Below, in pieces: positions 1 to 52,428 of a stretch of DNA of 64,000 nucleotides; within the stretch, counting starts at the first letter, position 1; each line of letters begins with the position of its first letter. The notes beneath the pieces were generated by a model. That model saw only the letters and a list, made by a program, of their open reading frames with translations, was not told the DNA's origin and did no database searches. The position numbers and the translations under genes were made by a program. Source of the stretch: an uncultured Clostridia bacterium (GTDB lineage: Bacteria; Bacillota; Clostridia; TANB77; CAG-508); the NCBI GenBank assembly GCA_944386735.1, contig CALXCH010000001.1, positions 2,218 through 66,217 of the forward strand, given 5' to 3'.

Positions 1-702
1 GAAAAAATAAAAACATATAATATGCCATTTTTTAGTTATATAGTATCAGCATCATCACATACAGCATTTACATTAGATGGTTTGCAAGATACAAGTAAAG
101 TAAATATTGATGTAGGAAAATATAAAGGAACATTTTTTGGAAATTACTTAGAAGCAGTCAATTATGCAGACTATGCATTTGGAACATTTATAGAAGAACT
201 AAAGGATGCAGACTTGTATGATAATTCAGTAATTTTAATATATGGAGACCACAATGGAATAGATATGTATAATGCTGAAATGCTAGATTTCTTAGAACAG
301 ATAAATCCAGATTTAAATGATGTAGATATAAAATTAAATTATATAAGAGTAGCATGTGGAATGAAAATACCAGGAATAGAAAATTTAACAATAGAAAAAC
401 CAGTAAATAAATTAGATATAAAACCAACATTTGAATATTTAATAAAAGAAAATGCAGGAGTAAGTCTTGGAACAAATATGTTTGCAAGAAAAGATTTTGT
501 TTGTTTAAATAATGAAAGAATAGTAACTAGTAGATATTATTATGATGAAAAATGGTATAGAAGAATAGATGGAACAGAAGTAAATTTAGAAAATGGAGAA
601 ATACCAGAAGATGAAAAGGAGCTATTAGAAGAATATTATAATGATATGAAAGAGGAATTAGATATATCGACATCAATAAGTATAAATAATTTACTAAAAT
701 AA
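1..702 (+). CDS. LTA synthase / sulfatase-fold family protein, C-terminal part (5' end lies outside the window; the ORF track's Met at 22 is internal)
   Basis: The ORF is open from the window edge. Motifs such as SASSHTAF and LIYGDHNG are typical of the LtaS/sulfatase catalytic domain C-terminus. Confidence 0.55.
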   Translation, partial: EKIKTYNMPFFSYIVSASSHTAFTLDGLQDTSKVNIDVGKYKGTFFGNYLEAVNYADYAFGTFIEELKDADLYDNSVILIYGDHNGIDMYNAEMLDFLEQINPDLNDVDIKLNYIRVACGMKIPGIENLTIEKPVNKLDIKPTFEYLIKENAGVSLGTNMFARKDFVCLNNERIVTSRYYYDEKWYRRIDGTEVNLENGEIPEDEKELLEEYYNDMKEELDISTSISINNLLK

Positions 703-733
703 GCTGTTTTTGGGGACGGGGTCAAAAAACAGC
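703..733. repeat. Family-A hairpin repeat copy 1: GCTGTTTTT-GGGGACGGGGTC-AAAAACAGC
   Basis: Perfect 9-bp inverted repeat around a G-rich loop, starting right after the TAA stop at 700-702. Near-identical copy at 30066-30096 and an inverted variant at 33879-33913. Confidence 0.8.
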
Positions 734-7854: not shown

Positions 7855-7906
7855 TATTTTATCGCATAAGGCTTCTTATGCGATATTTTGAAAGGAAGAG
7901 AAGTAA

Positions 7907-9110
7907 ATGGCAAATGTAAATGAAAATTTTTTGAACTTAAAGAATGATTATTTGTTTTCTACTATAACAGAAAAAAGAAATGAATTTGAGAAAAATAATC
8001 CAGATAAAAAAGTCATAAGTTTAGGAATAGGAGATGTATCATTACCACTTGCACCAGTTGTAATAGAAGCAATGAAAAAGTCAGTTGATGAAATGTCTAA
8101 AAAAGAAACTTTTAGAGGCTATGGAATAGTTCAAGGATATGACTTTTTAATAGATAGAATTTTAGATGTTGAATATAAGAAAAGAGGAGTTTCTTTAGAA
8201 AAAGATGAAGTGTTTATTGCAGCAGGAAGTAAAGGAGATTTAGCAGGAATAGCAGAGTTGTTATCTGAAGATAATATTGTAGCTTTAATGGATCCAGTAT
8301 ATCCAGCATATAGAGATGCAAATATAATGCTTGGAAGAAATGATATAGTTTATTTAAAAGCTACTGAAGAAAATAATTTTACACCTGAACTTCCAAAAGA
8401 ACATGTTGATATAATATACCTTTGTTCTCCAAATAATCCAACTGGAACAGTTTTAACTAGAAAGCAATTAGAGGAATGGATTAAATATGCTAAAGAAAAT
8501 AAAGCAATAATATTTTACGATTCTGTTTATGAAATATTTATAGAAGATGAAGATATACCTCATAGTATCTATGAGATAGAAGGCGCAAAAGAAGTTGCAG
8601 TAGAATTTAGATCTTATTCAAAACTTGCAGGCTTTACAGGTGTTAGATGTTCTTTTGCGGTTGTACCTAAAGAACTAAAAGTATACACAAAAAGTGGAAA
8701 AGAGGTGGATTTAAATAGTTTGTGGAGAAGAAGACAAAGTACTAAATTTGGTGCAGCGTCATATATTACTCAAAGAGCAGCAGAAGCAGTGTATACAGAA
8801 GATGGTCAAAAACAAATAAGAGAAAATATAAAATATTATAAAGAAAATGCAAAATACATAAAAGAAGAATTAGAAAAAGTTGGATTTATTGTATATGGAG
8901 GAGAAAGTTCACCATATATTTGGCTTAAAACACCAAATGCAATGAAATCTTGGGATTTCTTTGATAAATTATTAAATGAAGCAGCAGTAGTCCGGAACAC
9001 CAGGAGTAGGATTTGGAGAATGTGGAGAGGGATTTTTTAGATTAACAGCATTTTCTAGTAAAGAAGATACTAAAGAAGCTGTGGATAGGATAATTAAATT
9101 ATTTAAGTAA
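7907..9110 (+). pseudogene. Class I/II (PLP) aminotransferase of the diaminopimelate pathway (DapC/PatA-like), interrupted by a 1-nt frameshift near 8991
   Basis: Frame A reads ...AAVV then nonsense to 9040. The +1 frame from 8991 reads [39 protein letters not shown] to TAA at 9108-9110, the canonical aminotransferase C-terminus. Confidence 0.7.
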
Positions 9111-10273: not shown

Positions 10274-10804
10274 ATGAAAAAGGTATATATAGTAATAATT
10301 TTAACAATAGTTCTAATTTTAATAATATGTGGAATTGAATTTTTCACCAATAATAGACATGAAGAAGAACAAAATATGACAACTGCAAATGAAAATGCTG
10401 TTGTAAATGAAGCTACGGAAAACTATGCTACAAATAGTAATGTAAATCAAATAGATGAAGATAGTAGAAATATTAATAATGTAACAATGAAAATAAAAGA
10501 AGGAACATTAACAAAAACATCTGCAACTATTTTAATAGAAGATAAAAATGAAGAAAAATATGACTATGGACAATGGTTTAGAATTGATAAAAAAGAAAAT
10601 GGAGAATGGAAAGAGTTAGAGCAAATAAATGAAAATTTTGCATTTACTGATATAGCATATATTCCAAAAGAAGACGGAACAATAGAAATCGAGGAGAACT
10701 GGAAAGATTTATATGGAGAGTTAGATACAGGAGAATATAGATTAGTAAAAGAATTATATGGTAATGAAAAAAATTATATATATGCAGAGTTTACAATTGA
10801 ATAA
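10274..10804 (+). CDS. Hypothetical secreted/membrane-anchored protein
   Basis: N-terminal hydrophobic segment and a GGGGGAA RBS-like sequence before ATG 10274. Confidence 0.4.
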   Translation: MKKVYIVIILTIVLILIICGIEFFTNNRHEEEQNMTTANENAVVNEATENYATNSNVNQIDEDSRNINNVTMKIKEGTLTKTSATILIEDKNEEKYDYGQWFRIDKKENGEWKELEQINENFAFTDIAYIPKEDGTIEIEENWKDLYGELDTGEYRLVKELYGNEKNYIYAEFTIE

Positions 10805-14462: not shown

Positions 14463-17198
14463 TTGGATAAATTTGTATTAGTAGATGGAAATAGTATAAT
14501 GAATAGAGCATTTTATGGAATAATGGGAAGTAAAATGCTAACAACAAAAGATGGAAAATATACAAATGCGGTGTATGGATTTTTAGCAATAATGTTTAAA
14601 TTGTTAGAAGACGTAAAGCCGCAATATATGGCAGTAGCATTTGATTTAAAAGCACCTACAGCAAGGCACAAAATGTATGAAGGATATAAAGCAAATAGAA
14701 AAGGAATGCCAGATGAACTTGCAGAACAAATGCCTATGATAAAAGAAATATTACGTGCAATGAATATAGATATAGTAGAAATGGAAGGGTATGAAGCAGA
14801 TGATGTATTAGGAACCCTATCTTGTTATGGAGAAAAACAAGGATTAGATGTAATTATTCTTTCAGGAGATAGAGATACATTTCAGCTTGCAACAGATAAA
14901 GTAACAATAAGAATACCACATACAAAAGCAGGAAAAAGTGAAACAGATGAATATGATGCAAAAAAAATAAAAGAAAAATATGGATTAAAGCCAAAACAAT
15001 TAATAGAAGTAAAAGGACTTCAAGGAGATACATCAGATAATATACCAGGAGTACCAGGAGTAGGAGAAAAAACAGCACTAAAACTGGTACAAGAATATGG
15101 CTCAATAGATAATTTGTATAAAAAAATAGAAGCAGGAGAAGATGATTTAAAAGGAAAACAAAGAGAAAAAATAGTAGAAAATAAAGACTTGGCATATTTA
15201 TCTAAAACATTAGGAACAATAAATGTAAATGTACCAATAAAAGATGATTTAAGCGATTTTAAGGTGGAAGAATGGGATAAAGAAAAAGTATTAGAATTGT
15301 TTAAGGAATTAAATTTTAACCGTTATATAGAACGTTTTAATTTAAAAGGAGAAGGTACTACAGGAGAAAAGGAAAATAACAGTAATAAGGAATTATATAA
15401 AAGAGTAGAAAAATCAAAAGAAGAAATAATTGATTTTATGAGACAATCAAAAGAAATGATATTTTACTTTGTAACAGAAAAAGATGATGATAAAGAAAAA
15501 ATAATAAAAGAAAAAATAAAAGGAATATCTATTTATAATAAAGAAAAAAATGAAGTTTATTATATAGAATTAAATAATGATGCGGATTGTTTGAAAGAAG
15601 TATTGGAAGATTCTGAAATAAGAAAAGTAGGAATAGATTTAAGTAGAATATATATATTATTAAAACAGGTTGGAATAAACTTAAAAGGAATAGATTATGA
15701 TATATCAATAGCATCATACATATTAAATCCAACAGATAATAAACTAAAAATAGAAGATTTAATAGTAAAATTTTTAGAATTAGATTTAGAGGAAATCTTA
15801 GGAGAAGAAGAAAAAAAAGATACTAAAGCAAAACAGATAAATCTATTTGAAAGCTCAGAAAATGATAGTGAAGAAAAAAGAAAATTAGAGGAAAGAAAAA
15901 AAGAAGAAGCTTGCTTGTATGTATATAGCATAGGAAAAATAAAAGAGATAACACTAAAGAAATTAGAAGAAGTAAATTGCTTAGAATTATTTAATAAAAT
16001 AGATATGCCTACAGTAGAAGTATTATCAAATATGCAATGGAATGGTATGTATGTAGATAAAGAAGAATTAGAAGCATTTGGAAAGGAACTAACACAAAAG
16101 TTAGATACAATAACAAAAATAATTTATGAAATGGCAGGAGAAGAATTTAATATAAATTCAACAAAACAATTAGGAGAAATCTTATTTGAAAAAATGAAAT
16201 TACCTGTTATTAAGAAGACAAAAAGTGGATATTCAACAGATGTAGATGTATTAGAAAAACTAAAAAAAGAAGATCCAATAATAGAACAAATATTAGAATA
16301 TAGACAACTTATGAAATTAAACTCAACATATGTAGAAGGATTAAAACCATATATAAATCCCAAAACAAATAGAATACATTCATTTTTCCATCAAACAATA
16401 ACAGCAACAGGAAGAATAAGCTCAACAGAGCCAAATCTACAAAATATACCAACAAGATTTGAACTTGGAAAAAGAGTAAGAAGAGTATTTAAGCCAGAAA
16501 ATGGATATGTCTATGTAGATGCAGATTATTCACAAATAGAATTAAGAGTATTAGCATCAATATCAGAAGATAAACATATGATAGAAGCATTTAAAGAAGG
16601 GCAAGATATTCATAAACAAGCAGCATCAAAGGTATTTAAAACCCCAATGGATGAAGTAACAAAAGAACAAAGAAGTAATGCAAAAGCAGTAAACTTTGGA
16701 ATTGTTTATGGGATAAGTGATTTCGGTCTAGGAGAACAATTAGGAATAGGAAGAAAACAAGCAAAAAAATATATAGATGAGTATTTAAGTGAATATTCTG
16801 GAATAAAGAAATTTATGGATAATATAAAAGAAGAAGCAAAAGAAAAAGGCTATGTAGAAACATTGTTCCATAGAAGAAGATATATACCAGAATTGAAATC
16901 AAACAATTATATGGTAAGACAATTTGGAGCAAGAGCAGCAATGAATACACCAATACAAGGAACAGCAGCAGATATAATGAAAATTGCTATGATAAAAGTA
17001 TTAAAAGAAATTGAAAAAAGGGGATTAAAATCAAAAATAGTATTACAAGTACACGATGAAATGATGATAGAAGCACCAATAGAAGAAAAAGAAGAAATAA
17101 AGGAAATAGTAAAAAATAGTATGGAGACAGCAACTAAGTTAAAAGTACCACTAATTGCTGAAATTTCAGAAGCAGACAACTGGTATGATTGCAAATAA
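14463..17198 (+). CDS. polA: DNA polymerase I
   Basis: 911 aa containing 5'-3' exonuclease, 3'-5' exonuclease-like and polymerase (family A) motifs such as DYSQIELR and QVHDE. AGGAGG RBS with TTG start. Confidence 0.95.
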   Translation: MDKFVLVDGNSIMNRAFYGIMGSKMLTTKDGKYTNAVYGFLAIMFKLLEDVKPQYMAVAFDLKAPTARHKMYEGYKANRKGMPDELAEQMPMIKEILRAMNIDIVEMEGYEADDVLGTLSCYGEKQGLDVIILSGDRDTFQLATDKVTIRIPHTKAGKSETDEYDAKKIKEKYGLKPKQLIEVKGLQGDTSDNIPGVPGVGEKTALKLVQEYGSIDNLYKKIEAGEDDLKGKQREKIVENKDLAYLSKTLGTINVNVPIKDDLSDFKVEEWDKEKVLELFKELNFNRYIERFNLKGEGTTGEKENNSNKELYKRVEKSKEEIIDFMRQSKEMIFYFVTEKDDDKEKIIKEKIKGISIYNKEKNEVYYIELNNDADCLKEVLEDSEIRKVGIDLSRIYILLKQVGINLKGIDYDISIASYILNPTDNKLKIEDLIVKFLELDLEEILGEEEKKDTKAKQINLFESSENDSEEKRKLEERKKEEACLYVYSIGKIKEITLKKLEEVNCLELFNKIDMPTVEVLSNMQWNGMYVDKEELEAFGKELTQKLDTITKIIYEMAGEEFNINSTKQLGEILFEKMKLPVIKKTKSGYSTDVDVLEKLKKEDPIIEQILEYRQLMKLNSTYVEGLKPYINPKTNRIHSFFHQTITATGRISSTEPNLQNIPTRFELGKRVRRVFKPENGYVYVDADYSQIELRVLASISEDKHMIEAFKEGQDIHKQAASKVFKTPMDEVTKEQRSNAKAVNFGIVYGISDFGLGEQLGIGRKQAKKYIDEYLSEYSGIKKFMDNIKEEAKEKGYVETLFHRRRYIPELKSNNYMVRQFGARAAMNTPIQGTAADIMKIAMIKVLKEIEKRGLKSKIVLQVHDEMMIEAPIEEKEEIKEIVKNSMETATKLKVPLIAEISEADNWYDCK

Positions 17199-17252
17199 TG
17201 TCGCATTGGGGACGTTTCCTATGAACACATTTTGTCGCATTTGGGACACATC
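17199..17252. repeat. Family-B element copy 1: direct repeats TGTCGCATTGGGGACG ... TGTCGCATTTGGGACAC
   Basis: Two 16-17-nt direct repeats 20 nt apart, immediately after the polA stop. Related copies at 23713-23761 and 25189-25280. Confidence 0.7.
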
Positions 17253-17289
17253 TTTCAAAGTGGAATGACAAAGGAGAGAGAAAATAAAA

Positions 17290-17851
17290 GTGAAAAATAT
17301 AAAACTAGTTATTACTATTGTAGTAATTTTACTTGTCATTGTATTTGTTTTTATTTTTAAAGATAAAATACTAAGAATAATTTACCCTAAAACTTATCAA
17401 GATATAGTTTCAAATTATGCTAGAGAATATAATGTTGAAGAAAATTTAGTATTTGCAGTTATAAAAGCTGAAAGCAACTTTGATGAAAATGCTGTGTCGC
17501 ATAAAAATGCTATTCGGTTTAATGCAGATTATGGAAGAGACAGCAGATGATATTGCAACAAGATATGGAATTGACATAGATAAAGAAAACATAAAAGAAT
17601 CTGTAACAAATGTACAAAATAATATAAATATTGGAACAAAATATTTATCTACTTTGCTTGATAAATATGGAAATAAAGAGGTTGCAGTTGCAGCGTATAA
17701 TGCAGGAATAGGAACTGTTGATAATTGGATAGCCAAAAATATAATAAAAGCAGATGGAAGTGATATTGAAAATATACCCTATAAAGAAACTAACAATTAT
17801 GTAAGGAAAATATTAAGAAATTATAAAATTTATCAAAGTATATATAAATAG
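17290..17851 (+). pseudogene. Lytic transglycosylase (Slt domain) interrupted by a 1-nt insertion at about 17515
   Basis: ORF1 ends ...AESNFDENAVSHKNAI then RFNADYGRDSR*. The ORF2 frame continues GLMQIMEETADDIATRYG...AAYNAGIGTVDNW. Removing C at 17515 restores the ESxF...GLMQ catalytic motif. Confidence 0.7.
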
Positions 17852-23661: not shown

Positions 23662-23712
23662 ATTTCCTCCTTGAATTCTTTTTAATTTATATTCATAGAA
23701 TATAAAAATATT

Positions 23713-23761
23713 CATTGGGGACGTTTCCTTTGTGACATTTGGTATGCATTTGGGATACATC
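23713..23761. repeat. Family-B element copy 2: CATTGGGGACGTTTCCT ... GCATTTGGGATACATC
   Basis: Same paired-repeat architecture as 17199-17252. Lies in the ylbJ upstream region. Confidence 0.65.
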
Positions 23762-23899
23762 TACGAAAGAAAATTATAATTTAATTAATATATTTTTTAG
23801 AATTAAAATAATATAAAAAGAGTCTCAAATTAATGAGACTCCATGTTTACCCAAGAAAATGAAGATAATCACTGCTTCTTATAAGCTTACTTGATTTCT

Positions 23900-24267: not shown

Positions 24268-25188
24268 TTGGATATAAGAAAGATTATAGAAGAAGCAAAT
24301 CTAAAAATTTCTAAAGATAGAATTTTATTTGAAGAGCCAATGAAAAAATATACAAGTTTTAAGATTGGTGGACCAGCAGAATGTTTAATAAAAATAGAAA
24401 ATAAAGAAGAATTAAAAGAAATATTAAGTTTAGCAAATGAAAATGATATACCTGTAACGATTATAGGAAATGGAAGTAATGTGTTAGTGCTAGATGAAGG
24501 AATACCAGGTATTACTTTAATGATAAAAATTGAAGGAATAAGCTTTCAAACTTTAGATGACAAAAAGTTTATTGTTAGAGTTGGAGCAGGAGAAAAGATT
24601 GCAAAAGTAGGAAGAATGTTTTTAAACAATTCTCTTACAGGTTTTGAAGAAATATCAGGAATACCAGGAACTTTTGGCGGAGCAGTAAGAATGAATGCGG
24701 GAGCACACGGAAAAGAAATGAAAGACATAGTAAAAACTGTTACTTGTATGGATTATTCTGGTAATGAAAAAATATTTAGTAATCAAGAAATGAAATTTGA
24801 ATATAGAAGAAGTATTTTAAAAGAAGAAAAATATATAGTAACAGAAGTAGAAATAGAACTTGAAAAAGGAAATACAGAAGAAATAAAAGCAAAAATGGAT
24901 GAATATGCAAAATTTAGAAAAGAAAAACAACCATTAGAATATCCAAGCGCAGGAAGTACATTTAAAAGAGGAGAAGATTTTATAACAGCTAAATTAATAG
25001 ATGAAGCAGGCTTAAAAGGATATTCTGTTGGTGATGCAGAAGTATCAACAAAACATGCAGGTTTTGTAATAAACAAAGGAAATGCGACTGCAAAAGATGT
25101 TTTAGAATTAGTAAACAAAGTAAAAGAAGAAGTTTATAAAAAATTTCAAAAGAAAATAGAATTAGAAGTAGAAGTAATAGGTAGATAG
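24268..25188 (+). CDS. murB: UDP-N-acetylenolpyruvoylglucosamine reductase
   Basis: FAD-binding PCMH domain (GGPAE) and a C-terminal MurB domain. 306 aa. Confidence 0.9.
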   Translation: MDIRKIIEEANLKISKDRILFEEPMKKYTSFKIGGPAECLIKIENKEELKEILSLANENDIPVTIIGNGSNVLVLDEGIPGITLMIKIEGISFQTLDDKKFIVRVGAGEKIAKVGRMFLNNSLTGFEEISGIPGTFGGAVRMNAGAHGKEMKDIVKTVTCMDYSGNEKIFSNQEMKFEYRRSILKEEKYIVTEVEIELEKGNTEEIKAKMDEYAKFRKEKQPLEYPSAGSTFKRGEDFITAKLIDEAGLKGYSVGDAEVSTKHAGFVINKGNATAKDVLELVNKVKEEVYKKFQKKIELEVEVIGR

Positions 25189-25280
25189 GATGTGTCCTAG
25201 ATGTGACATTTTAAGTTAGATGTTAAAGCTTTGCTTGTTACAGATAAATTACGCAAAGGAAACGTCCTAAATAGTGACAT
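25189..25280. repeat. Family-B element copy 3 (inverted orientation, longer spacer)
   Basis: The reverse complement reads ATGTCACTATTTAGGACGTTTCC ... ATGTCACATCTAGGACACATCC. Starts at the murB stop. Confidence 0.65.
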
Positions 25281-26993: not shown

Positions 26994-29024
26994 ATGAGAT
27001 TTACAAAAGAAAGTTTAAATTTGGAAAATGGTTTAGATAAAGAATGGATAATTACTAATGGAATAGGAGGATATAGTTCTTCTACAATAATTGGTGCAAA
27101 TACAAGAAAATATCACGGATTGTTAGTTGCAAGTTTAACACCACCTGCAAGAAGGTTTTTAATACTTTCTAAGTTAGATGAAAGTATTGAAGTTAGAGGT
27201 AAAAAATATAATCTTTATACTAATATTGGAAAAGAATATATATCAAAAGGATTCAAGTATCAAGACAGCTTTGAAAAAGATATTGTACCAACTTTTACAT
27301 ACAAAGTAGGAAAAATTGAAATAACTAAAACTATTTGTATGGATTATGGTAAAAATACAGTTGGAATTTATTATAAAATTAAAAATGGAGCTTATAAATC
27401 TAAATTAACATTAGCGCCTATAATTAATTTTAGAGATTTTCATACTGTAAGTACAGACCATTGTTTCAATTTAAAACAACAAATTCATGGAAATAAAGTA
27501 AGAATAGAAGTAGATGAAAACTCTTATACTCCTATTTATATAAATCTATCAGATGGAAAATATGTAGAACATCAAAATGATAGCTTTAATAATATGTTTT
27601 ATATAGAGGAAGAAAAAAGAGGCTTTGAAGGAGAAGAAAACCATGCAGTACCAGGTAGGTATGAGATAGAAATTAAGGCCAAAGAAATAAAAGAACTTTC
27701 TTTTGTATGTTCATTAGAGGAAAATATTGAAGAACTTGATGTAAAAGATTTAATAGAAAAAGAAGAAAAAAGAGTAAATGAAATATATGAAAATTCAGAG
27801 CTTATAAATGAAAAGGCTAAAACTCAAAAAGAGAAAAAAGAGAATGAATTAATAAAAACATTTTTATTAGCAGCAGATAATTTTGTAGTAAATCGTTATA
27901 ACTTTGGATTACACACTTTAATTGCAGGATATCACTGGTTCTTAGATTGGGGAAGAGATGCCTTAATTTCTTTTGAAGGTGTTTTATTAATACCTAAAAG
28001 ATTTGATATAGCTAGAGAAGTTTTAAAAACAATGACAAGAGATGTTAAATATGGATTAGTTCCAAATGGATATTCAGGTTATGATAATAGACCACTTTAT
28101 AATAGCGTAGATGCATCACTATTATTGTTTGAAGAAATACAAAAATATATTGATTATACAAAAGATTATAAGTTTGTAAAGGAAGAAATGTATGATGTGA
28201 TGAAAGCAATAATTGAAAATTATTGTAAAGGAATAAATGTAGACGAAAATAATATCTATTTAGATACAGATGGATTAATTGTTTCAGGAACAGAAAATAC
28301 ACAAAATACATGGATGGATGTGAAATTTGACGGAAAAGCAGTAACACCTAGAAATGGAAAAGCTGTAGAAGTAAATAGTTTATGGTACAATGCAAATAGA
28401 ATTATGGCAGATTTAAGTATAAGATTTGGTCATCTTTTAACTGCTAAAAAGTACAAGGATTTAGCAGAAAATTGTAAAATAGCATTCCAAGAAAAATTTT
28501 ATAACAAAGAAACAAAATGTTTATATGATGTTTTAGGAGATGGAAAAATAAGACCAAATCAATTATTTTCATTAAGTTTAAGTTATCCTGTAATTGAACC
28601 TGATTCAGAAGAAGCTAGAAACATTATAACAGTAATAGAAAAAAAATTATTAAATGCATATGGATTAAAAACTTTAGCAAAAGGCGAAGAAAATTATGTA
28701 GAGGTTTATGAAGGTGATGAAAAACATAGAGATACAAGTTATCATCAAGGAATAACTTGGCCATGGTTACTTGGGCTATATTATAATGCTTTAAAAAATA
28801 TGAAGAATAAAATAGAAAATAAAGAAGAAAAAGAAGAGTTAGAACAAAAAATAAATAAGTTTATTGAAAAAACTAAAAAGACATTTTCTAAAGAAATTTA
28901 TGAAAATGGATGTATAGGAAGTATTTCAGAACTTTATGACTCAAGAAAACCACAATTACCAAAAGGAACAATTGCACAATGTTGGAGTGTAGCAGAAATA
29001 TTTAGAATAATACTTGGAAAATAA
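26994..29024 (+). CDS. Glycogen debranching enzyme (amylo-alpha-1,6-glucosidase family)
   Basis: 676 aa with GDE N-terminal and (alpha/alpha)6 catalytic-domain signatures (GYHWFLDWGRD). Confidence 0.75.
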   Translation: MRFTKESLNLENGLDKEWIITNGIGGYSSSTIIGANTRKYHGLLVASLTPPARRFLILSKLDESIEVRGKKYNLYTNIGKEYISKGFKYQDSFEKDIVPTFTYKVGKIEITKTICMDYGKNTVGIYYKIKNGAYKSKLTLAPIINFRDFHTVSTDHCFNLKQQIHGNKVRIEVDENSYTPIYINLSDGKYVEHQNDSFNNMFYIEEEKRGFEGEENHAVPGRYEIEIKAKEIKELSFVCSLEENIEELDVKDLIEKEEKRVNEIYENSELINEKAKTQKEKKENELIKTFLLAADNFVVNRYNFGLHTLIAGYHWFLDWGRDALISFEGVLLIPKRFDIAREVLKTMTRDVKYGLVPNGYSGYDNRPLYNSVDASLLLFEEIQKYIDYTKDYKFVKEEMYDVMKAIIENYCKGINVDENNIYLDTDGLIVSGTENTQNTWMDVKFDGKAVTPRNGKAVEVNSLWYNANRIMADLSIRFGHLLTAKKYKDLAENCKIAFQEKFYNKETKCLYDVLGDGKIRPNQLFSLSLSYPVIEPDSEEARNIITVIEKKLLNAYGLKTLAKGEENYVEVYEGDEKHRDTSYHQGITWPWLLGLYYNALKNMKNKIENKEEKEELEQKINKFIEKTKKTFSKEIYENGCIGSISELYDSRKPQLPKGTIAQCWSVAEIFRIILGK

Positions 29025-29040
29025 AGGAGTAATTTAAAAG

Positions 29041-30066
29041 ATGACATCTATTGAAAATCTAGAAAAAGAATTAAAACAAGAAAAATTGAATAGTTTATAC
29101 CTTTTATATGGTGAAGAACTATTTTTATTAGAAAACAATATAAAAAGAATAAGAAAATTATTTGGTGAAACTGTAAAAGGCATAAACTCTATTTTAATAG
29201 ATGATACAAATGTAAAAGAATTAATCCAAGATATTGAAACACCTGCATTTGGTTATGAGAAAAAACTAATTATTGCAAGAAATACTGGACTTTTTAAAGC
29301 AGAAGGAAAAAGAAAAAATAAAGAACTTAGTGATTTAAAAGATAAAATAAATGATTATTTAAATGAAAATATTGATATAATAAATCAAAGTGTTATATTA
29401 GTATTTGTGGAAGAAGATGCAGATAGTAGATTAAAATTATTTAAAACATTAGATAAACTAGGAACAGTTTGTAAATTCGATTTCCAAAAACCTGTACAAA
29501 TAGAAAAAAGAGTAAAAGCTATTTGTAAAGCTTATGAAGTAAAAATAGATGATAGTACTTTAAAATATTTTATAGAAATTTGTGGAACAAATATGCAAGA
29601 TGTAATAAATGAAATAAGAAAACTTATTGAGTATGCAGGAAAAGGTGGAGTAATTAAAAAAGAAGATGTTGATAGCTTAACAATAAAAAAACTAGAAGCA
29701 GTAATATTTGATTTAACAGATAATTTAGGGCAAAAACAAACAAGAAAAGCATTAGATGTATTAAAGAATTTGATTTATAATAAAGAGCCAATACAAAGAA
29801 TTTTAGTTATGTTATATAATCATTTTAAGAAACTATATTTCTTAAAATTAGCAATTAGATATAATAAAGATATTGTAACTTCATTAAGTTTAAAACCAAA
29901 TCAAACTTTTCTAGTAAACAAATATAAAACACAATCTAAATATTTTACAGAAAAAGAATTAAAAGAAGTTTTGCAAGCATTAAGAGATTTAGATGTAAAT
30001 TATAAGAATGGCCTAATAGACATACAAGTGGGCTTAGAAGCAATTCTTTGTAATTATTGCTCATAG
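29041..30066 (+). CDS. holA: DNA polymerase III subunit delta
   Basis: N-terminal LYLLYGEELFLLE, typical of HolA. 341 aa. Confidence 0.8.
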   Translation: MTSIENLEKELKQEKLNSLYLLYGEELFLLENNIKRIRKLFGETVKGINSILIDDTNVKELIQDIETPAFGYEKKLIIARNTGLFKAEGKRKNKELSDLKDKINDYLNENIDIINQSVILVFVEEDADSRLKLFKTLDKLGTVCKFDFQKPVQIEKRVKAICKAYEVKIDDSTLKYFIEICGTNMQDVINEIRKLIEYAGKGGVIKKEDVDSLTIKKLEAVIFDLTDNLGQKQTRKALDVLKNLIYNKEPIQRILVMLYNHFKKLYFLKLAIRYNKDIVTSLSLKPNQTFLVNKYKTQSKYFTEKELKEVLQALRDLDVNYKNGLIDIQVGLEAILCNYCS

Positions 30067-30096
30067 CTGTTTTTGGGGACGGGGTCAAAAAACAGC
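30066..30096. repeat. Family-A hairpin repeat copy 2 (identical to 703-733), overlapping the holA TAG stop
   Basis: 31/31 nt identical to copy 1. Confidence 0.8.
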
Positions 30097-33878: not shown

Positions 33879-33913
33879 TCAGCTGTTTTTTGACCCCGTC
33901 ATGAAAAACAGCT
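33879..33913. repeat. Family-A hairpin repeat copy 3 (inverted/variant loop GACCCCGTCATG)
   Basis: CAGCTGTTTTTT...AAAAAACAGCTG stem. The loop is the reverse complement of the GACGGGGTC core. Confidence 0.7.
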
Positions 33914-35574: not shown

Positions 35575-38500
35575 ATGAAAAGAAACAAAAGAGTTTTAAT
35601 AATGATTTTAATAATAATTATTATATCAGGAACACTTTTTTTGATTTTTAATAATAGTAATAATATTACTAAAAATAAATCTCAAATAAAAGGAAATATT
35701 GAAATATCTACTAGTTCTAATGTAAATGTGGTAGAACGAGAAATGACATTATCTGCAGAAAAAACAACAGAAGCAATGGAAAACAACTCAAGAGTCTTAC
35801 AAAATGCTATAGATGAAGTTTCAAGTTCTGGTGGAGGAACTATAAGCTTACCAGCAGGAACATATTATTTTGCACCAATAAATACATATACAGACCAAGC
35901 AAGCTCTCAGAAAAGAGCATATTATGCTGTTGAATGTAGAAGTAATGTTAAACTTGTAGGAGCGGGAACTAATGAGAGTAATAGCAATTCATGTACTATA
36001 CTTAAACCATATGGTGCTAATTTGGATGTTTCATTTACAATGTTCCAGTATATAAGTCAAGATACACCTAAAGTATATATTGAAAATGCGGATTTTGCAG
36101 ATTTTATAATAGATGCTAATGAAACATCCAAAAATCAAAACACTGGATATGTAGCTCAAGGAAAAGGATTTTCTTTTTCAGCATATAAAGATTGTGATTG
36201 GAATAATGTAGTGGTTAAGAATACAGATGGTACTGGATTTGGTATGGATTATCCAATAAATTGTACTGTAACAAATTGTGTTGCGATAGGATGTGGAAAA
36301 GCAGCTGCAGATACTGATGCTGGAGCATCAGGTTTCGGAATAGGAACAGGATATTCTGAGGACGAATCAATGAAAATTTCTAATTGTTTATCAATAGGAA
36401 ATAGAAAGTTTGGATTTTTCTTTGAACATCAAGGTAGGTTTGGTTCTGATATAAGAGCTAGAACTGCAAAAGGATTTATTGTTACTGATTGTGTAGCAAG
36501 AGGTAATATGTATAATTTTGGAGGAGAAAAAGCAAATGATTTGATTTATATAAATTGTACATCTGAGAATAGTAATAGTAATGATCCAAATCCATTAAGG
36601 AATCAGAATAAAAATGCGTTCTATTTTGGAACAAATACAAGAAGATCATATGTACAAGATTGTGATATAGAGCAATCATACACTAATATAACAGATACGA
36701 GTGTTTCATACTATACACCAGTTTATTGGGCTGCAAAAAACTCAATAATAGATATAGGTGGTGACAGAACGGAATATAATGCATTAAATAATTGTTATAA
36801 TTCATCAGCGATAGCGATGTTATGGAGATTTGCTGGCAGACCAGGAGAGGTATTAATAGGTAATGAACAAGGTGATACAGGATATGATGATGTTGGCTCT
36901 AATGACTGGTTTGTTGATGCAGTAGTATGGGCATATAATGAAGGCATATTAAGTGGAGGAGGAGCGTTTAATGCAGGAAATGACTGTACTAGAGGAGAGT
37001 TTATAACAATGCTTTGGAAATATGCTGGTAGCCCAATTGTTAGTACGGGAAATAATTATACAGATGTTAATGCAGGAGATTCCTTTTATAATGCTGTAAA
37101 CTGGGCATTAAGTAAGAGAATAATAGAATCACAAGGAAGTGAATTTTATCCTTCAAATGCATGTACAAATGCTGAGATTTTAACCATGTTATATAAATAT
37201 GATACAGTAAATCCACAAAGAGTAGTAATATATGATTATTGGGAAAATGGAGGAAATGATTCTAGTAAAGTATATGAAATAGAAAAACAAAATGAAAATG
37301 TAGATTTAAATGTAAAAGCGCAAAAAGATGGATATCAATTTGAAGGATGGTCAACTAATAAAAATGCAACAACTGGAGCATCTTCTTTAAGGATGAATGC
37401 AGACAGTATATATTTATATGCTTTATACAAGAAAGATATAAAAATAACATATGATGCAAATGGTGGAAATAATGCACCATCAGTTCAAACAGCTACAATT
37501 TATAATAATCAAGAAAGTGTAAATATAACCTTAAGCAAATCTATACCTACAAGAGCAGGATATACATTTAAAGGATGGACAGATGAGAAAGATTCTGCAC
37601 AAGTTAAATATAGTTCAGGTGAAACATGTTCATTTGATGATAGTTGTACATTATATGCAGTATGGGAAGTAATGAAGGAAAAATATACATTAACAGTAAG
37701 GCCAAATGGAGGAAAATGGAATAATTTAACACAAGATGCAGAAATTAATGGTGAATCAGGAACAAGTGTTAACATACCAAATCCAATTCCACCACAAGGA
37801 TATACAATAATATTTAATGGAAATGGTGGAATAGCTAGCAAAACATCTGAAACAACGACAAAAATTTTTAACAATTGGAGTTTAAGTGGAGTTGGAAGCT
37901 TAACTGGAACAACATATACATTTGGAGAAGGTTCAGGAATATTAACAGCAAATTATACGGATATAGGAATAGAAATGCCAACAGCTATAAGAGATGGATA
38001 TACATTTAGAGGTTGGACAGATGTAAGAGGTTCAACAGAAATAAAATATAGAGCAGGAGAAACATATTCTTTTGATAGCAATTGTACATTATATGCAGTA
38101 TGGGAAGAAAATACAAGCGCGTCATATATGGTAACGTATGATTATTCTCATAATGGTGGAGAAAGTGTGGATAAAGTGCAAGAAGAAAAAAAACCGGGAG
38201 AAGAAATAGACTTAAATGTGCAAGCAAGAAAATCAGGATATGAATTTGTCGGATGGTCAACTGATCCCCAGGCTAAAGAAGGGGTAGAGTTTTTAGTAAT
38301 GGAAAATGAAAATATTACCTTATATGCAATATTTAAGAAAGATATTAGATTAAACTTTATTGATTATAATGGAAGAGAAGAAAATCAAACAGTAGAAAAC
38401 ATAACAATATATAATAATGACAAGGGAGAAATTACAGCACCAACTATAAATCAATATTCAGATTGGATTGCAAGATATTGGACAATTGATAAACAACCAG

Positions 38501-42774: not shown

Positions 42775-42849
<75 letters not shown>

Positions 42850-43821: not shown

Positions 43822-44179
43822 ATGGGGATGAAATGGTTTCGACATAATACTAGAAGTATAGATTGCAAGTAGTGGATGGTCGCTTTGGCCACTTAAAAAA
43901 AGCGAAAGTAAATATAAACGCTGATAACGAAGAATTAGCATTAGCTGCCTAAGTTGCGGCTACGCTTTACTAAAAAGTCCCACCTTTTTAGATAAAGTGT
44001 TATAACAGTGGGAAACGAAGCTACTTTTGCTTTTAAAGTAGTAGGTATTTTAAAAAGCTATATTTTAATAAAACCTGTTTGTTGGTGTTATTAAAATGAA
44101 TAAAATAAACAAACTAAACTTGTAGATATCTATGTGGAAGGTATTGTGGACAGGAGTTCGACTCTCCTCATCTCCACCA
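43822..44179 (+). ncRNA. ssrA: tmRNA (SsrA), tag reading frame GCT GAT AAC GAA GAA TTA GCA TTA GCT GCC TAA (ADNEELALAA)
   Basis: 5' GGGGATG and 3' GGACAGGAGTTCGACTCTCCTCATCTCCACCA tRNA-like ends. Internal tag ORF at 43926-43958. Terminator hairpin follows. Confidence 0.9.
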
Positions 44180-45139: not shown

Positions 45140-45308
45140 TGGCTATACCGTAAAAGCTAAATAGCTTTTAGTAAAAAGAAAATAGTTTTCTTTACCTCCT
45201 TTAAAGGAGGTTTCTTTTTATTCTACATAACTATTTGAATTGTTATATAATTGTGGTATAATAAATGAGTATTAAAGTAATAGTTAGTATATAGAAAGGA
45301 AGAGTATT

Positions 45309-46064: not shown

Positions 46065-46259
46065 CTTTGCTAACTAATAACAAATGGTTAAATAACCATT
46101 AAGCTAAAAAGAAAAAATTTCTTTTCCTCTAGAAATAGAGGTTTCTTTTTTTATTTTTTATTTTTGACAAAAATTAAGTATTAATTGACTTTTATGTAAA
46201 TGGAATATATAATAACAATATGTAATTGTAAAATCATTTTACTTAGAGAAAGGAATATC

Positions 46260-47027: not shown

Positions 47028-47183
47028 GAATGATTAACGAGAGTGTTAAATAACCTCTTAAAAAAGATTTTATCTTTCCCTCTAGAAATAGAGGGTTCTT
47101 TTTATTTTTTAGATTTGTAATAATAGAATTTTCAGTTGAATAAAATAAAATGTGAACATTTTGTGAAAAATTAAAAATAGGTA

Positions 47184-50296: not shown

Positions 50297-50372
50297 GCCA
50301 AAATAGCTCAGTTGGTAGAGCAACGGATTCGTAACCCGGAGGTCAGCAGTTCGATTCTGCTTTTTGGCACCA
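50297..50372 (+). tRNA. tRNA, most likely Thr (anticodon CGU), 76 nt with encoded CCA
   Basis: GCCAAAATAGCTCAGTTGGTAGAGCAACGGATTCGTAACCCGGAGGTCAGCAGTTCGATTCTGCTTTTTGGCACCA. Acceptor, D and T arms are perfect. The anticodon stem has only 3 WC pairs. Has its own promoter and terminator. Confidence 0.65.
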
Positions 50373-51273: not shown

Positions 51274-52428
51274 ATGGAAATAACAATACATAGAGGGACA
51301 CACCAAATAGGAGGATGTGTTACTGAAATAGAATCTAGTAAAGGTACAAAAATAATAATAGATATTGGTGAAAACTTACCAACAGAAGATGGAAGAAAAT
51401 TACCAGAACTTAATGTAGAAGGATTAAAAGAAGGTAAAGAAGATATAGATGCTGTATTTGTAACACATTATCATGGAGACCATATAGGGCTATTTAATAA
51501 GATTTCACCTAAGATACCAATATATATTGGAGAAATTTCAAAACAAATATATATGATGGTAGCAAAGAAACTTGCAAGTGCTGGTATAATAGGAGAGGAA
51601 GATATAGAAAGAATTAACAAGTTTATAGGTTATAAAATTGGAGAAAAAATAAAAATAAATGATATAATAGTTACACCAATAGAAGTTGACCATTCAGCAT
51701 TTGATGCACATATGTTATTAATTGAATGTGACGGTAAAAAAGTATTACATACAGGAGATTTTAGAACACATGGACAAAGAGGGAAAGCAGTTATTCCAGC
51801 ATTAGAGATATATGTAGGAAAGGTAGATTGTTTAATATGTGAAGGAACTACGCTTTCAAGAGAAAAAGAAACTCAGATAACAACAGAATTTGAAATACAA
51901 AAAGAAGCTAAAGAAATTTTTGAGAAGAATATGTATTCTTTTGTAATATGCAGTAGTACTAATATTGATAGAATTGCAGCAATACATAAGGGAGCAATAG
52001 AAGCAGGAAGATTATTTGTATGTGATGAATATCAAAAAGAGATTTTAATGTATATAGATACTGTTTCAAGAAGTACATACTATAAATTTAAAGGAAAAGT
52101 ACTTAATTATGCAGAAAACATTAAAAATCTTATGAAAGAAAAAGGATTTGTTATGCTTGTTAGACCAAATTATATATCTAAAAAAGTTATGAGAGAATTT
52201 AAGGATAGTGTGTTTATTTATTCACAATGGAAAGGTTATTTAAGTGAAAAATATAAAAATGATTATGAGTATTTACAAAGTTTTGTACCAAGAGATTATA
52301 TATATTTACATACAAGTGGTCATGCAGATTTTGAAGCAATAAAAAAGATTTGTGAAGCAGTAAAACCCCAAATAATAATTCCAATACATGGAGAAAAACC
52401 AGAAGAATTTAATAATATGCGGACTTGA
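51274..52428 (+). CDS. Metallo-beta-lactamase-fold nuclease with a beta-CASP-like C-terminus (384 aa)
   Basis: MBL motifs D(IIDIGE), HYHGDH, TGDFR, and the beta-CASP motif C HTSGHA near the C-terminus. Confidence 0.65.
   Translation: MEITIHRGTHQIGGCVTEIESSKGTKIIIDIGENLPTEDGRKLPELNVEGLKEGKEDIDAVFVTHYHGDHIGLFNKISPKIPIYIGEISKQIYMMVAKKLASAGIIGEEDIERINKFIGYKIGEKIKINDIIVTPIEVDHSAFDAHMLLIECDGKKVLHTGDFRTHGQRGKAVIPALEIYVGKVDCLICEGTTLSREKETQITTEFEIQKEAKEIFEKNMYSFVICSSTNIDRIAAIHKGAIEAGRLFVCDEYQKEILMYIDTVSRSTYYKFKGKVLNYAENIKNLMKEKGFVMLVRPNYISKKVMREFKDSVFIYSQWKGYLSEKYKNDYEYLQSFVPRDYIYLHTSGHADFEAIKKICEAVKPQIIIPIHGEKPEEFNNMRT

Follow-up and report, generated by a model that had tools for sequence, protein, structure and literature searches.

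The 64,000-nucleotide (nt) stretch of DNA analysed here (the window; contig CALXCH010000001.1 of an uncultured Clostridia bacterium, G+C content 27.6%) carries three related copies of a short sequence element, called family B below, and the question raised by this locus is what these copies are. A preliminary description offered two answers, wherein the copies were either an iteron-like operator for a regulator of envelope and sporulation genes or a degenerate miniature repeat family. It is the second of these that the comparison with related genomes upholds. Family B very probably consists of short, non-autonomous extragenic repeats of the repetitive extragenic palindromic (REP) or terminal inverted repeat (TIR) kind, served by a Y1 (HUH) transposase that is apparently single-copy and ends in a putative helix-turn-helix (HTH) domain, an enzyme of the REP-associated tyrosine transposase (RAYT) or TIRYT type. 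The association of the repeats with this enzyme, their intergenic dispersal, their gain and loss between relatives and the covariation of repeat and enzyme by lineage are all observed. The finding is real but of a known kind: the repeats are selfish and are not the binding site of a regulator.

The three elements, which measure about 56 to 92 nt (Table 1; coordinates are those of the whole window), recur far above chance. The 13-mer GGGGACGTTTCCT has two exact matches, at positions 17208 and 23717, and one minus-strand match at 25257 that differs at two bases; the chance expectation is 0.14 matches, and none of 100 shuffled sequences reaches three. A second box, GGGACACATC, occurs with at most one mismatch at 17243, 23752 and 25189 (minus strand), and there is one stray match at 51295. 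These matches place the copies where they had previously been reported. The GTTTCCT tail, the mixed orientation, the names of the neighbouring genes and the sharing of the core TTGGGGACG with a second repeat family (family A, at 702, 30065 and 33881) were likewise correctly described. The proposal that each copy comprises two direct repeats of about 17 nt stands in part. Such repeats are present, but are clean only in copy 1; copy 2 is without the first TGTCGC, and in copy 3 the GGGG has decayed to TAGG/CTAGG and about 40 nt is inserted between the halves. Moreover, the direct repeats are only part of the anatomy, in that the segment between them is their imperfect reverse complement.

The genes next to the copies encode PolA, an SLT-domain lytic transglycosylase, a YlbJ-like Gate-domain membrane protein, MurB and a CofD/YvcK-like protein. 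Copy 1 begins on the final A of the polA stop codon TAA (17196-17198). Copy 2 has its head about 45 nt upstream of the ylbJ-like gene, which is divergent and has its start codon on the minus strand at 23661-23659, and the element reads away from that gene. Copy 3 occupies the spacer between murB and the CofD(YvcK)-like gene, wherein its second half directly adjoins the murB TAG stop codon (25186-25188) and the element lies about 15 nt before the start of the CofD(YvcK)-like gene. The transglycosylase gene 3′ of copy 1 is split into two overlapping open reading frames (ORFs) at 17290-17550 and 17480-17851, each with an SLT match, which represents a frameshift or a sequencing error.

With a family profile built from the copies of relatives together with window copies 1 and 2, the three window copies score 57, 36 and 19 (+9) bits, and the best copies of relatives score 62 to 65 bits. 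The window copies are probably passive relics at various stages of decay, and any effect that they have on the expression of polA, ylbJ, murB or yvcK would be incidental. No Rfam 15 family was matched in the whole window at gathering thresholds, and no relevant match was found between 17000 and 25500 at E values up to 10. None of the three copies was called as a terminator in a terminator scan, and a promoter scan likewise gave nothing at the elements, its promoter-like matches being at background level (60 versus 52.7 expected).

Copies of the same element are dispersed through related genomes. A genome scan with a permissive 18-mer returned at least 114 loci (numbered here with the prefix L), most of which are chance matches in high-GC genes, many of them apparently encoding ABC ATPases. 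The nhmmer family profile was run on 40 loci of relatives and on the window, and in these 41 low-GC sequences it identifies at least 57 distinct copies with E < 1e-3, a census of the family that is incomplete. The element-carrying loci come from metagenome-assembled genomes (MAGs) of uncultured low-GC Clostridia, including BRZ_FR_bin67, BRZ_FC_bin42, BRZ_HK_bin22, BRZ_NT_bin79, BRZ_DD_bin29 and others, and the window matches BRZ_HK_bin22 with 87% identity over 5.7 kb and BRZ_DD_bin29 with 92% identity over 2.2 kb. Family-B copies are intergenic, since at most two of 59 profile matches overlap a plausible ORF, as against ORF coverage of about 87% of the DNA. They occur as singles, as tail-to-tail inverted dimers 6 nt apart (L094, L098, L106 and L112) and as wider convergent pairs. 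Many related lineages have no element in 10 to 19 kb.

The operator proposal, wherein the paired half-sites would be bound as a duplex by a regulator of envelope and sporulation genes, has in its favour that two direct repeats lie about 35 nt apart and that all three copies adjoin envelope-related genes (those for the SLT, YlbJ-like and MurB/YvcK-like proteins). The HTH-like C terminus of the Y1 protein described below could in principle also bind duplex copies. The proposal nevertheless fails because the copies are not conserved at orthologous sites, being missing from relatives that retain the same genes. The site at the end of polA is filled in the window and in L021 (BRZ_HK_bin22) and empty in five other relatives (L126, L130, L135, L138 and L178). 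The copy upstream of ylbJ is absent from all eight relatives in which the region was recovered (L125, L126, L129, L134, L135, L139, L142 and L178). The murB/yvcK spacer is variable: it is filled in the minus orientation, as in the window, in L124/L139 and L145, filled in the opposite (plus) orientation in L153-L156, reduced to remnants in L146 and L151, and empty in L125, L126, L127, L148, L172 and L141. Of the two observations that the preliminary description had said would count against it, absence from the orthologous promoters of relatives was seen, but scatter inside coding regions was not.

Several further features argue against an operator. Orientation and distance to the downstream gene vary, copy 1 is positioned over a stop codon and not in a promoter, many copies throughout the family abut the 3′ end of a gene (see below), and the sites show no enrichment of promoter-like signals. 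The neighbouring genes across the family are functionally diverse, unrelated housekeeping genes, including those for Trp/Tyr-tRNA synthetase, FtsW/RodA, PolC, UvrB, CdsA, alpha-amylase, PGI, a T2SS-F protein, PolA and RadA, as well as an uncharacterised membrane protein of 564 amino acids (aa) and an ORF of 232 aa that resembles a monofunctional transglycosylase. Comparison by eye with the known consensus sequences for sigma-54, CcpA cre, LacI-type palindromes and the Spo0A 0A box gave partial resemblance only, and a palindromic operator is disfavoured by the conserved asymmetry GGGGAC/GTTTCC. We therefore consider an operator very improbable.

Variation in occupancy speaks instead for mobile repeats, and it extends beyond the three sites of the window. 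At 17858-17907 of L124 there is a clean insertion of about 57 nt relative to about ten lineages, L090 has a single copy where L094 has a dimer, and a dimer in L156 corresponds to an empty site at 29011-29066 of the window.

The enzyme to which family B is tied is encoded in relatives. In seven lineages (L038, L069, L081, L115, L118, L121 and L194; nine assemblies or MAGs sampled), convergent, head-outward copies flank an ORF for a Y1 protein, and each flanking pair is the lineage's own variant, for example GGGGACAGTCCCC in L115 and TGTCCATTTGGGACGTTTCTTTTTGGACA in L118, which recurs elsewhere in the same locus. The ORF spans 257 aa when intact and otherwise reads as 162 + 82 aa. It carries an HUH motif (TNHVHLV) and a tyrosine motif (YIHQNP), wherein HVH and the tyrosine are invariant in the alignment, and it matches Pfam Y1_Tnp with 59.5 bits (cutoff 23). 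The best NCBIfam match is the REP-associated tyrosine transposase model NF047646 (65-73 bits), and the IS200 model NF033573 gives 17-26 bits. The homologues comprise this core and a C terminus of about 100 aa that is predicted to be helical, with a predicted local distance difference test (pLDDT) value around 90. The C terminus gives matches to HTH_23 (best E 7e-5), HTH_28 (7e-4), HTH_7 and Sigma70_r4_2, none of which reaches the Pfam cutoff. A single-sequence search of the PDB with the transposase gave nothing useful. When a profile of 20 homologues was compared with PDB sequences, the E. coli TnpA-REP entry 4ER8 was the sole match, and a weak one (E 0.013, 18 bits). The same entry is the top Foldseek match of the predicted AlphaFold2 structure (pLDDT 82; E 8e-6, template modeling score 0.70), followed by the ISDra2, IS608 and IS200 transposases at about 3e-4.

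The position of the Y1 gene is constant. In the order mreB, MiaB-like radical-SAM gene, small ORF, Y1, radA, disA and PPIase gene, synteny is kept across lineages whose enzymes are 61-95% identical, and no second copy of Y1 was found in the 1.12 Mb of clade DNA searched. In three sister lineages the small ORF is followed directly by radA, without Y1, and their four 20-kb loci contain no element in 80 kb; the Y1-bearing L194 has three elements in 20 kb. No Y1 homologue is encoded in the window. In BRZ_DD_bin29, the nearest relative in which one contig spans both regions, the contig carries the Y1 locus and a region homologous to the right end of the window, and by synteny with this contig the gene would lie about 83 kb beyond that end. 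In one Y1-less locus (L196, about 10440-10690), the spacer between the small ORF and radA holds an unrelated element of about 250 nt with long perfect terminal inverted repeats (ggtaatgtcattaagttaatggtggaggcacatgtatattaaaat...), which resembles a different miniature inverted-repeat transposable element (MITE).

Because the transposase belongs to the Y1 HUH superfamily, matches Pfam Y1_Tnp and has the transposases of ISDra2, IS608 and IS200 as its next-best folds, the copies might be the ends or remnants of an ordinary IS200/IS605 element, that is, of a palindrome-associated transposable element rather than a REP/TIRYT-type system. This explanation is barely credible. The gene is found at a single syntenic site in every lineage examined, no tnpB neighbour is present among the called genes, and the flanking copies are inverted, whereas the end hairpins of IS200/IS605 have the same orientation. 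In addition, both the NCBIfam scores and the best fold match point to the REP-associated enzymes.

Alignment of the window copies with those of relatives defines a unit of about 56 nt with the form X-X′-X (ATGTCGCATTGGGGAC / GTTTCCTTTGCGACAT / ATGTCGCATTTGGGAC) and an ACATCT tail. The consensus reads, in order, A-T-(T/G)-TCGCR, TTGGGGAC, GTTTCCTT, TGCGnnA, an A/T-rich stretch of 3-5 nt, (T/G)TCGCR, TTTGGGAC and ACATCT. The first 16 nt (X) are directly repeated, and the middle 16 nt (X′) are an imperfect reverse complement of X, so that the unit is a 1.5-fold palindrome wherein X′ is able to pair with either X. Within these pairings, G.T pairs arise from C-to-T changes and do not vary in the outer stem; a single TT/TT mismatch is also present. 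The 3′ hairpin is formed by GTTTC:GGGAC outside and by arm2:arm3 inside. Across 37 copies its inner stem is paired in 86% of cells, compared with 23-59% in slid controls, and its covariation score is 0.182 versus 0.091, with none of 500 shuffles reaching the observed value. The 5′ hairpin is weaker (73% paired; equalled by 6 of 500 shuffles), in part because the ribosome-binding site of a neighbouring gene frequently takes the place of arm1. A few subtypes fold strongly, such as that of L087 (z -4.4 and -5.2).

The conserved unpaired or tag sequence of the consensus is TTGGGGAC, and GTAG is absent. The GGGGAC(G/A) tags fit GGGGWSAS, the motif published for the repeats that flank TIRYT genes. 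In relatives the motif is matched by GGGGACAC or GGGGACAG, within box B or the core, both in copies beside the Y1 gene and in dispersed ones; the variant of L115 has GGGGACAG. The window copies carry the decayed forms TGGGACAC, TGGGATAC and TAGGACAC. In some MAGs (L099, L102 and L035) the unit is reduced to a hairpin-only variant, X-X′ followed by TTTTT, and in L004 and L071 it is repeated in tandem with a 36-nt period. The tandems were also considered as a CRISPR-like mini-array, a reading rejected because spacers are lacking and each unit repeats the palindrome head to tail. At 6021-6111 of L021, the orthologue of copy 1, a second, inverted partial copy is nested between the two halves, and the unrelated insert of about 40 nt in window copy 3 occupies the same internal position. 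From this shared position, the A/T-rich center of the element seems to be an insertion hot spot.

The placement of the repeats with respect to genes is not uniform. Among 48 scorable copies, 17 have a head that overlaps or abuts the stop codon of the co-oriented upstream gene, although only 1.4 would be expected for uniform placement of each copy within its own spacer. A second count, which includes window copy 1, finds the head at a stop codon in 19 to 23 of 57 copies, almost always as TAA followed directly by TKTCGCR. In about 16 further copies a divergent gene has its ribosome-binding site next to the head or replacing arm1. By analogy with related transposases, insertion seems to favour the position just 3′ of TA(A), and this preference, together with very short spacers, would make the stop codon the main tolerated site. 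At the Y1 locus, a strong Shine-Dalgarno sequence, GGAGGAGGAG, and the radA ATG are set about 56 nt apart by the right-hand element, which occupies exactly the interval between them (L038 4136-4206, L069 about 7900-7958 and L115 4790-4845). The translation of radA may depend on folding of the element or on a 19-codon mini-ORF that begins in the element tail and ends just past the radA ATG.

The same placement could reflect co-option by the host, wherein the elements act as RNA-level gene-boundary modules and function, not selfish transposition, accounts for their spread or at least their retention. In the sense orientation after a stop codon they might be 3′ stabilisers, terminators or ribosome-stalling elements, and in the antisense orientation before a ribosome-binding site they might be structures of the 5′ untranslated region (UTR). 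REPs near stop codons in E. coli affect mRNA stability and translation, and the excess of copies at stop codons and ribosome-binding sites, the units in which a hairpin is followed by a T-run and the invariant G.T wobble pairs of the outer stem are all compatible with such roles. We nevertheless judge this explanation to be unlikely. The window copies do not surpass shuffled sequence in folding and are not called as terminators, no Rfam family is matched, and sites are lost without replacement in relatives. The transposase association, the dimers and the tandems are explained more simply by mobility, and the TA(A) target preference with very short spacers could by itself yield the stop-codon pattern.

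The closest described system is the TIRYT, or "TIRtron". TIRYT genes are flanked by inverted repeats with a common GGGGWSAS, and some of these repeats form dispersed families (Di Nocera et al. 2013, PMC3733652). According to Quentin et al. (2018, PMC6006769), TnpA-Y1 subclass 2.1, whose members carry a C-terminal HTH, includes most TIRYTs, and no REP-like sequences were found beside its genes. In neither paper are REP/TIR systems ascribed to Clostridia or Firmicutes by name, and Clostridia are mentioned in PMC6006769 only for the IS200-like subclass 1.1; Group 1 RAYTs occur in Clostridia with only a modest repeat association (Bertels et al., PMC5581495). The system described here shares with TIRYTs and subclass 2.1 a RAYT-like Y1 HUH transposase that exceeds classical RAYTs in length and ends in an HTH-like domain (for which the matches here lie below the Pfam cutoffs), a gene flanked by inverted GGGGWSAS repeats, and a flanking repeat that is also a moderately abundant dispersed family of singles, dimers and clusters. 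It differs in its occurrence in uncultured low-GC gut Clostridia, in repeats that clearly flank the Y1 gene and covary with lineage, and in a unit that is a 1.5-fold palindrome with a head overlapping TAA stop codons.

Resemblance to the REP/REPIN-RAYT systems of E. coli and Pseudomonas is also extensive. It includes short repeats outside genes that are imperfect palindromes and occur in many copies; a Y1 gene, apparently single and vertically inherited, between inverted copies, as in a REPtron (its single-copy status being judged here from loci); inverted dimers like REPINs; repeat variants that change together with the enzyme lineage; and 4ER8 as the best fold and profile match. In contrast to those systems, however, the tag of family B is GGGGAC, without GTAG or a terminal CGTC, the palindrome is weak in most copies, and the enzyme has an extra C-terminal domain of about 100 aa and scores under the NCBIfam equivalog cutoff. 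IS200/IS605 elements and their miniature derivatives share the catalytic superfamily and, presumably, a single-strand, hairpin-guided chemistry with insertion beside a short target, but the family-B transposase appears not to be multi-copy or mobile, lacks tnpB and is flanked by inverted rather than direct end structures. Finally, the Gram-positive MITE-like repeats BOX, RUP, Bcr1 and EFAR are likewise small, non-coding intergenic Firmicutes repeats, often against gene ends. They are about 70-300 bp with conventional terminal inverted repeats used by DDE transposases, whereas family B is about 56 nt and Y1-linked.

A number of observations weigh against the assignment of family B to a RAYT/TIRYT-type system and must be set beside this evidence. 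The NF047646 (REP_Tyr_transpos) scores fall under the equivalog cutoff of 80. Convergent pairs also flank a monofunctional transglycosylase gene in L057 and L111, and because an ordinary gene can be flanked in this way, flanking alone is not unique to the transposase. A terminator hairpin between the left element and the Y1 gene persists in relatives without Y1, so the flanking pair cannot be read simply as the two ends of a single inserted unit. Filled and empty pairs of sites gave no target-site duplication or exact junction, only an approximate insertion of about 57 nt, because the filled and empty relatives are about 20% diverged, which makes exact junctions undefinable. Most copies are thermodynamically poor hairpins, the three window copies being no better than shuffles (z -1.4 to +0.2), and the family-B palindromes are weaker than those of classical REPs. 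The conservation of box A among the copies obtained by the scan is due in part to ascertainment through the search pattern, and the family copy number and the single-copy status of the transposase are extrapolated from loci rather than whole genomes. Lastly, the same +1 frameshift at TTATTTCGGAAATAC interrupts the Y1 gene in the three BRZ MAGs of the closest clade in which the locus was recovered, so that current mobility in the window's own genome is doubtful. Both halves of the frameshifted gene stay open, and about a dozen database homologues of about 170 aa (P0001-P0012; up to 39 members per cluster) end at the frameshift point. Recoding at this site, a split gene or shared decay might each account for the frameshift.

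Taken with the literature on IS200/IS605 and TnpA-REP (4ER8, PMC3733652, PMC6006769), the preferred assignment to a Y1-dependent repeat suggests how family B might spread. By analogy, the Y1 enzyme would recognise the folded element on single-stranded DNA, HUH/Tyr cleavage adjoining the element would be followed by rejoining, and the element would thereby be reinserted at new intergenic sites. The TA(A) insertion preference would explain the frequent overlap of the head with a TAA stop codon.

For the window, this assignment removes a false lead, in that there is no hidden envelope or sporulation regulon signal and the sites are to be labelled as decaying miniature repeats. To our knowledge, REP/RAYT-type systems have been studied almost only in Proteobacteria, and we know of no demonstrated substrate for the HTH-bearing Y1 enzymes (TIRYT, subclass 2.1). 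This abundant clade of uncultured low-GC gut Clostridia is a compact natural system for studying these enzymes, wherein one syntenic enzyme gene, lineage-specific flanks, dispersed copies, filled and empty sites, and sister lineages without gene and repeats are available together, and the stop-codon-abutting pattern is a concrete clue to target choice. A bolder reading, which we regard as doubtful, is that family B is the first clear REPtron-like system for HTH-bearing (TIRYT/subclass 2.1-like) Y1 transposases, in Firmicutes, with precise TA(A) insertion, co-option at host gene boundaries and a +1 frameshift that serves as regulatory recoding. If this were true, the head of the unit would become or abut a stop codon or ribosome-binding site upon TA(A) insertion, and the elements would serve as 3′-UTR structures and as bridges between Shine-Dalgarno sequence and start codon across 56 nt, as at radA.

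Table 1. Family-B copies and their parts, and other features of the window and of related loci
Feature	Location	Strand	Sequence or score
Copy 1, full-length element	17198..17253	+	nhmmer 57.3 bits, E 3e-16
Copy 1, arm1	17198-17205	+	ATGTCGCA
Copy 1, box A	17206-17223	+	TTGGGGACGTTTCCTATG
Copy 1, decayed arm2	17224-17230	+	AACACAT
Copy 1, arm3	17234-17239	+	GTCGCA
Copy 1, box B and tail	17240-17253	+	TTTGGGACACATCT
Copy 2	23706..23762	+	nhmmer 36.1 bits, E 1e-9
Copy 2, decayed arm1			AAATATTCA
Copy 2, box A	23715-23732	+	TTGGGGACGTTTCCTTTG
Copy 2, arm2			TGTGACAT
Copy 2, arm3			TATGCA
Copy 2, box B and tail	23749-23762	+	TTTGGGATACATCT
Copy 3, degenerate	25189..25280	-	nhmmer two pieces, 18.9 + 8.8 bits
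Copy 3, head	25280-25274	-	ATGTCAC
Copy 3, box A, followed by insert of ~40 nt			TTTAGGACGTTTCCTTTG
Copy 3, second half	ending at 25189		ATGTCACATCTAGGACACATC
Y1 +1 frameshift	L038 3830-3890		TTATTTCGGAAATAC
Y1 +1 frameshift	L069 ~7590		TTATTTCGGAAATAC
Y1 +1 frameshift	L081 ~5230	-	TTATTTCGGAAATAC
Family A in window	702-733, 30065-30096, 33881-33912 (inverted)		
Family A in relatives	L002 ~4615, L063 ~864, L076 ~7450, L086 ~299		
67-nt segment, hairpin then T-run, three copies ~940 nt apart	45173-45239, 46104-46170, 47057-47123		CCTCTAGAAATAGAGG...TTTTT
126-nt direct repeat, 438 nt apart	37547-37672 and 37985-38110		81% identical
tmRNA gene	43824-44179		191.7 bits
tRNA gene	42779-42849	-	
tRNA gene	50297-50369		

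The window contains other repeats (Table 1). Family A, with the form GCTGTTTTT-yrGGACGGGGTC-AAAAAACAGC, is a hairpin with a 10-bp stem and a 12-nt G-rich loop, and it constitutes a second dispersed repeat family that is common to the window and the BRZ MAGs. No transposase linked to it was found in the loci of relatives examined. Like family B, it can lie at the end of a gene: the copy at 702 is directly 3′ of a TAA stop codon, and that at 30065 overlaps a TAG. The three 67-nt segments are probably the terminators of tandemly duplicated genes.

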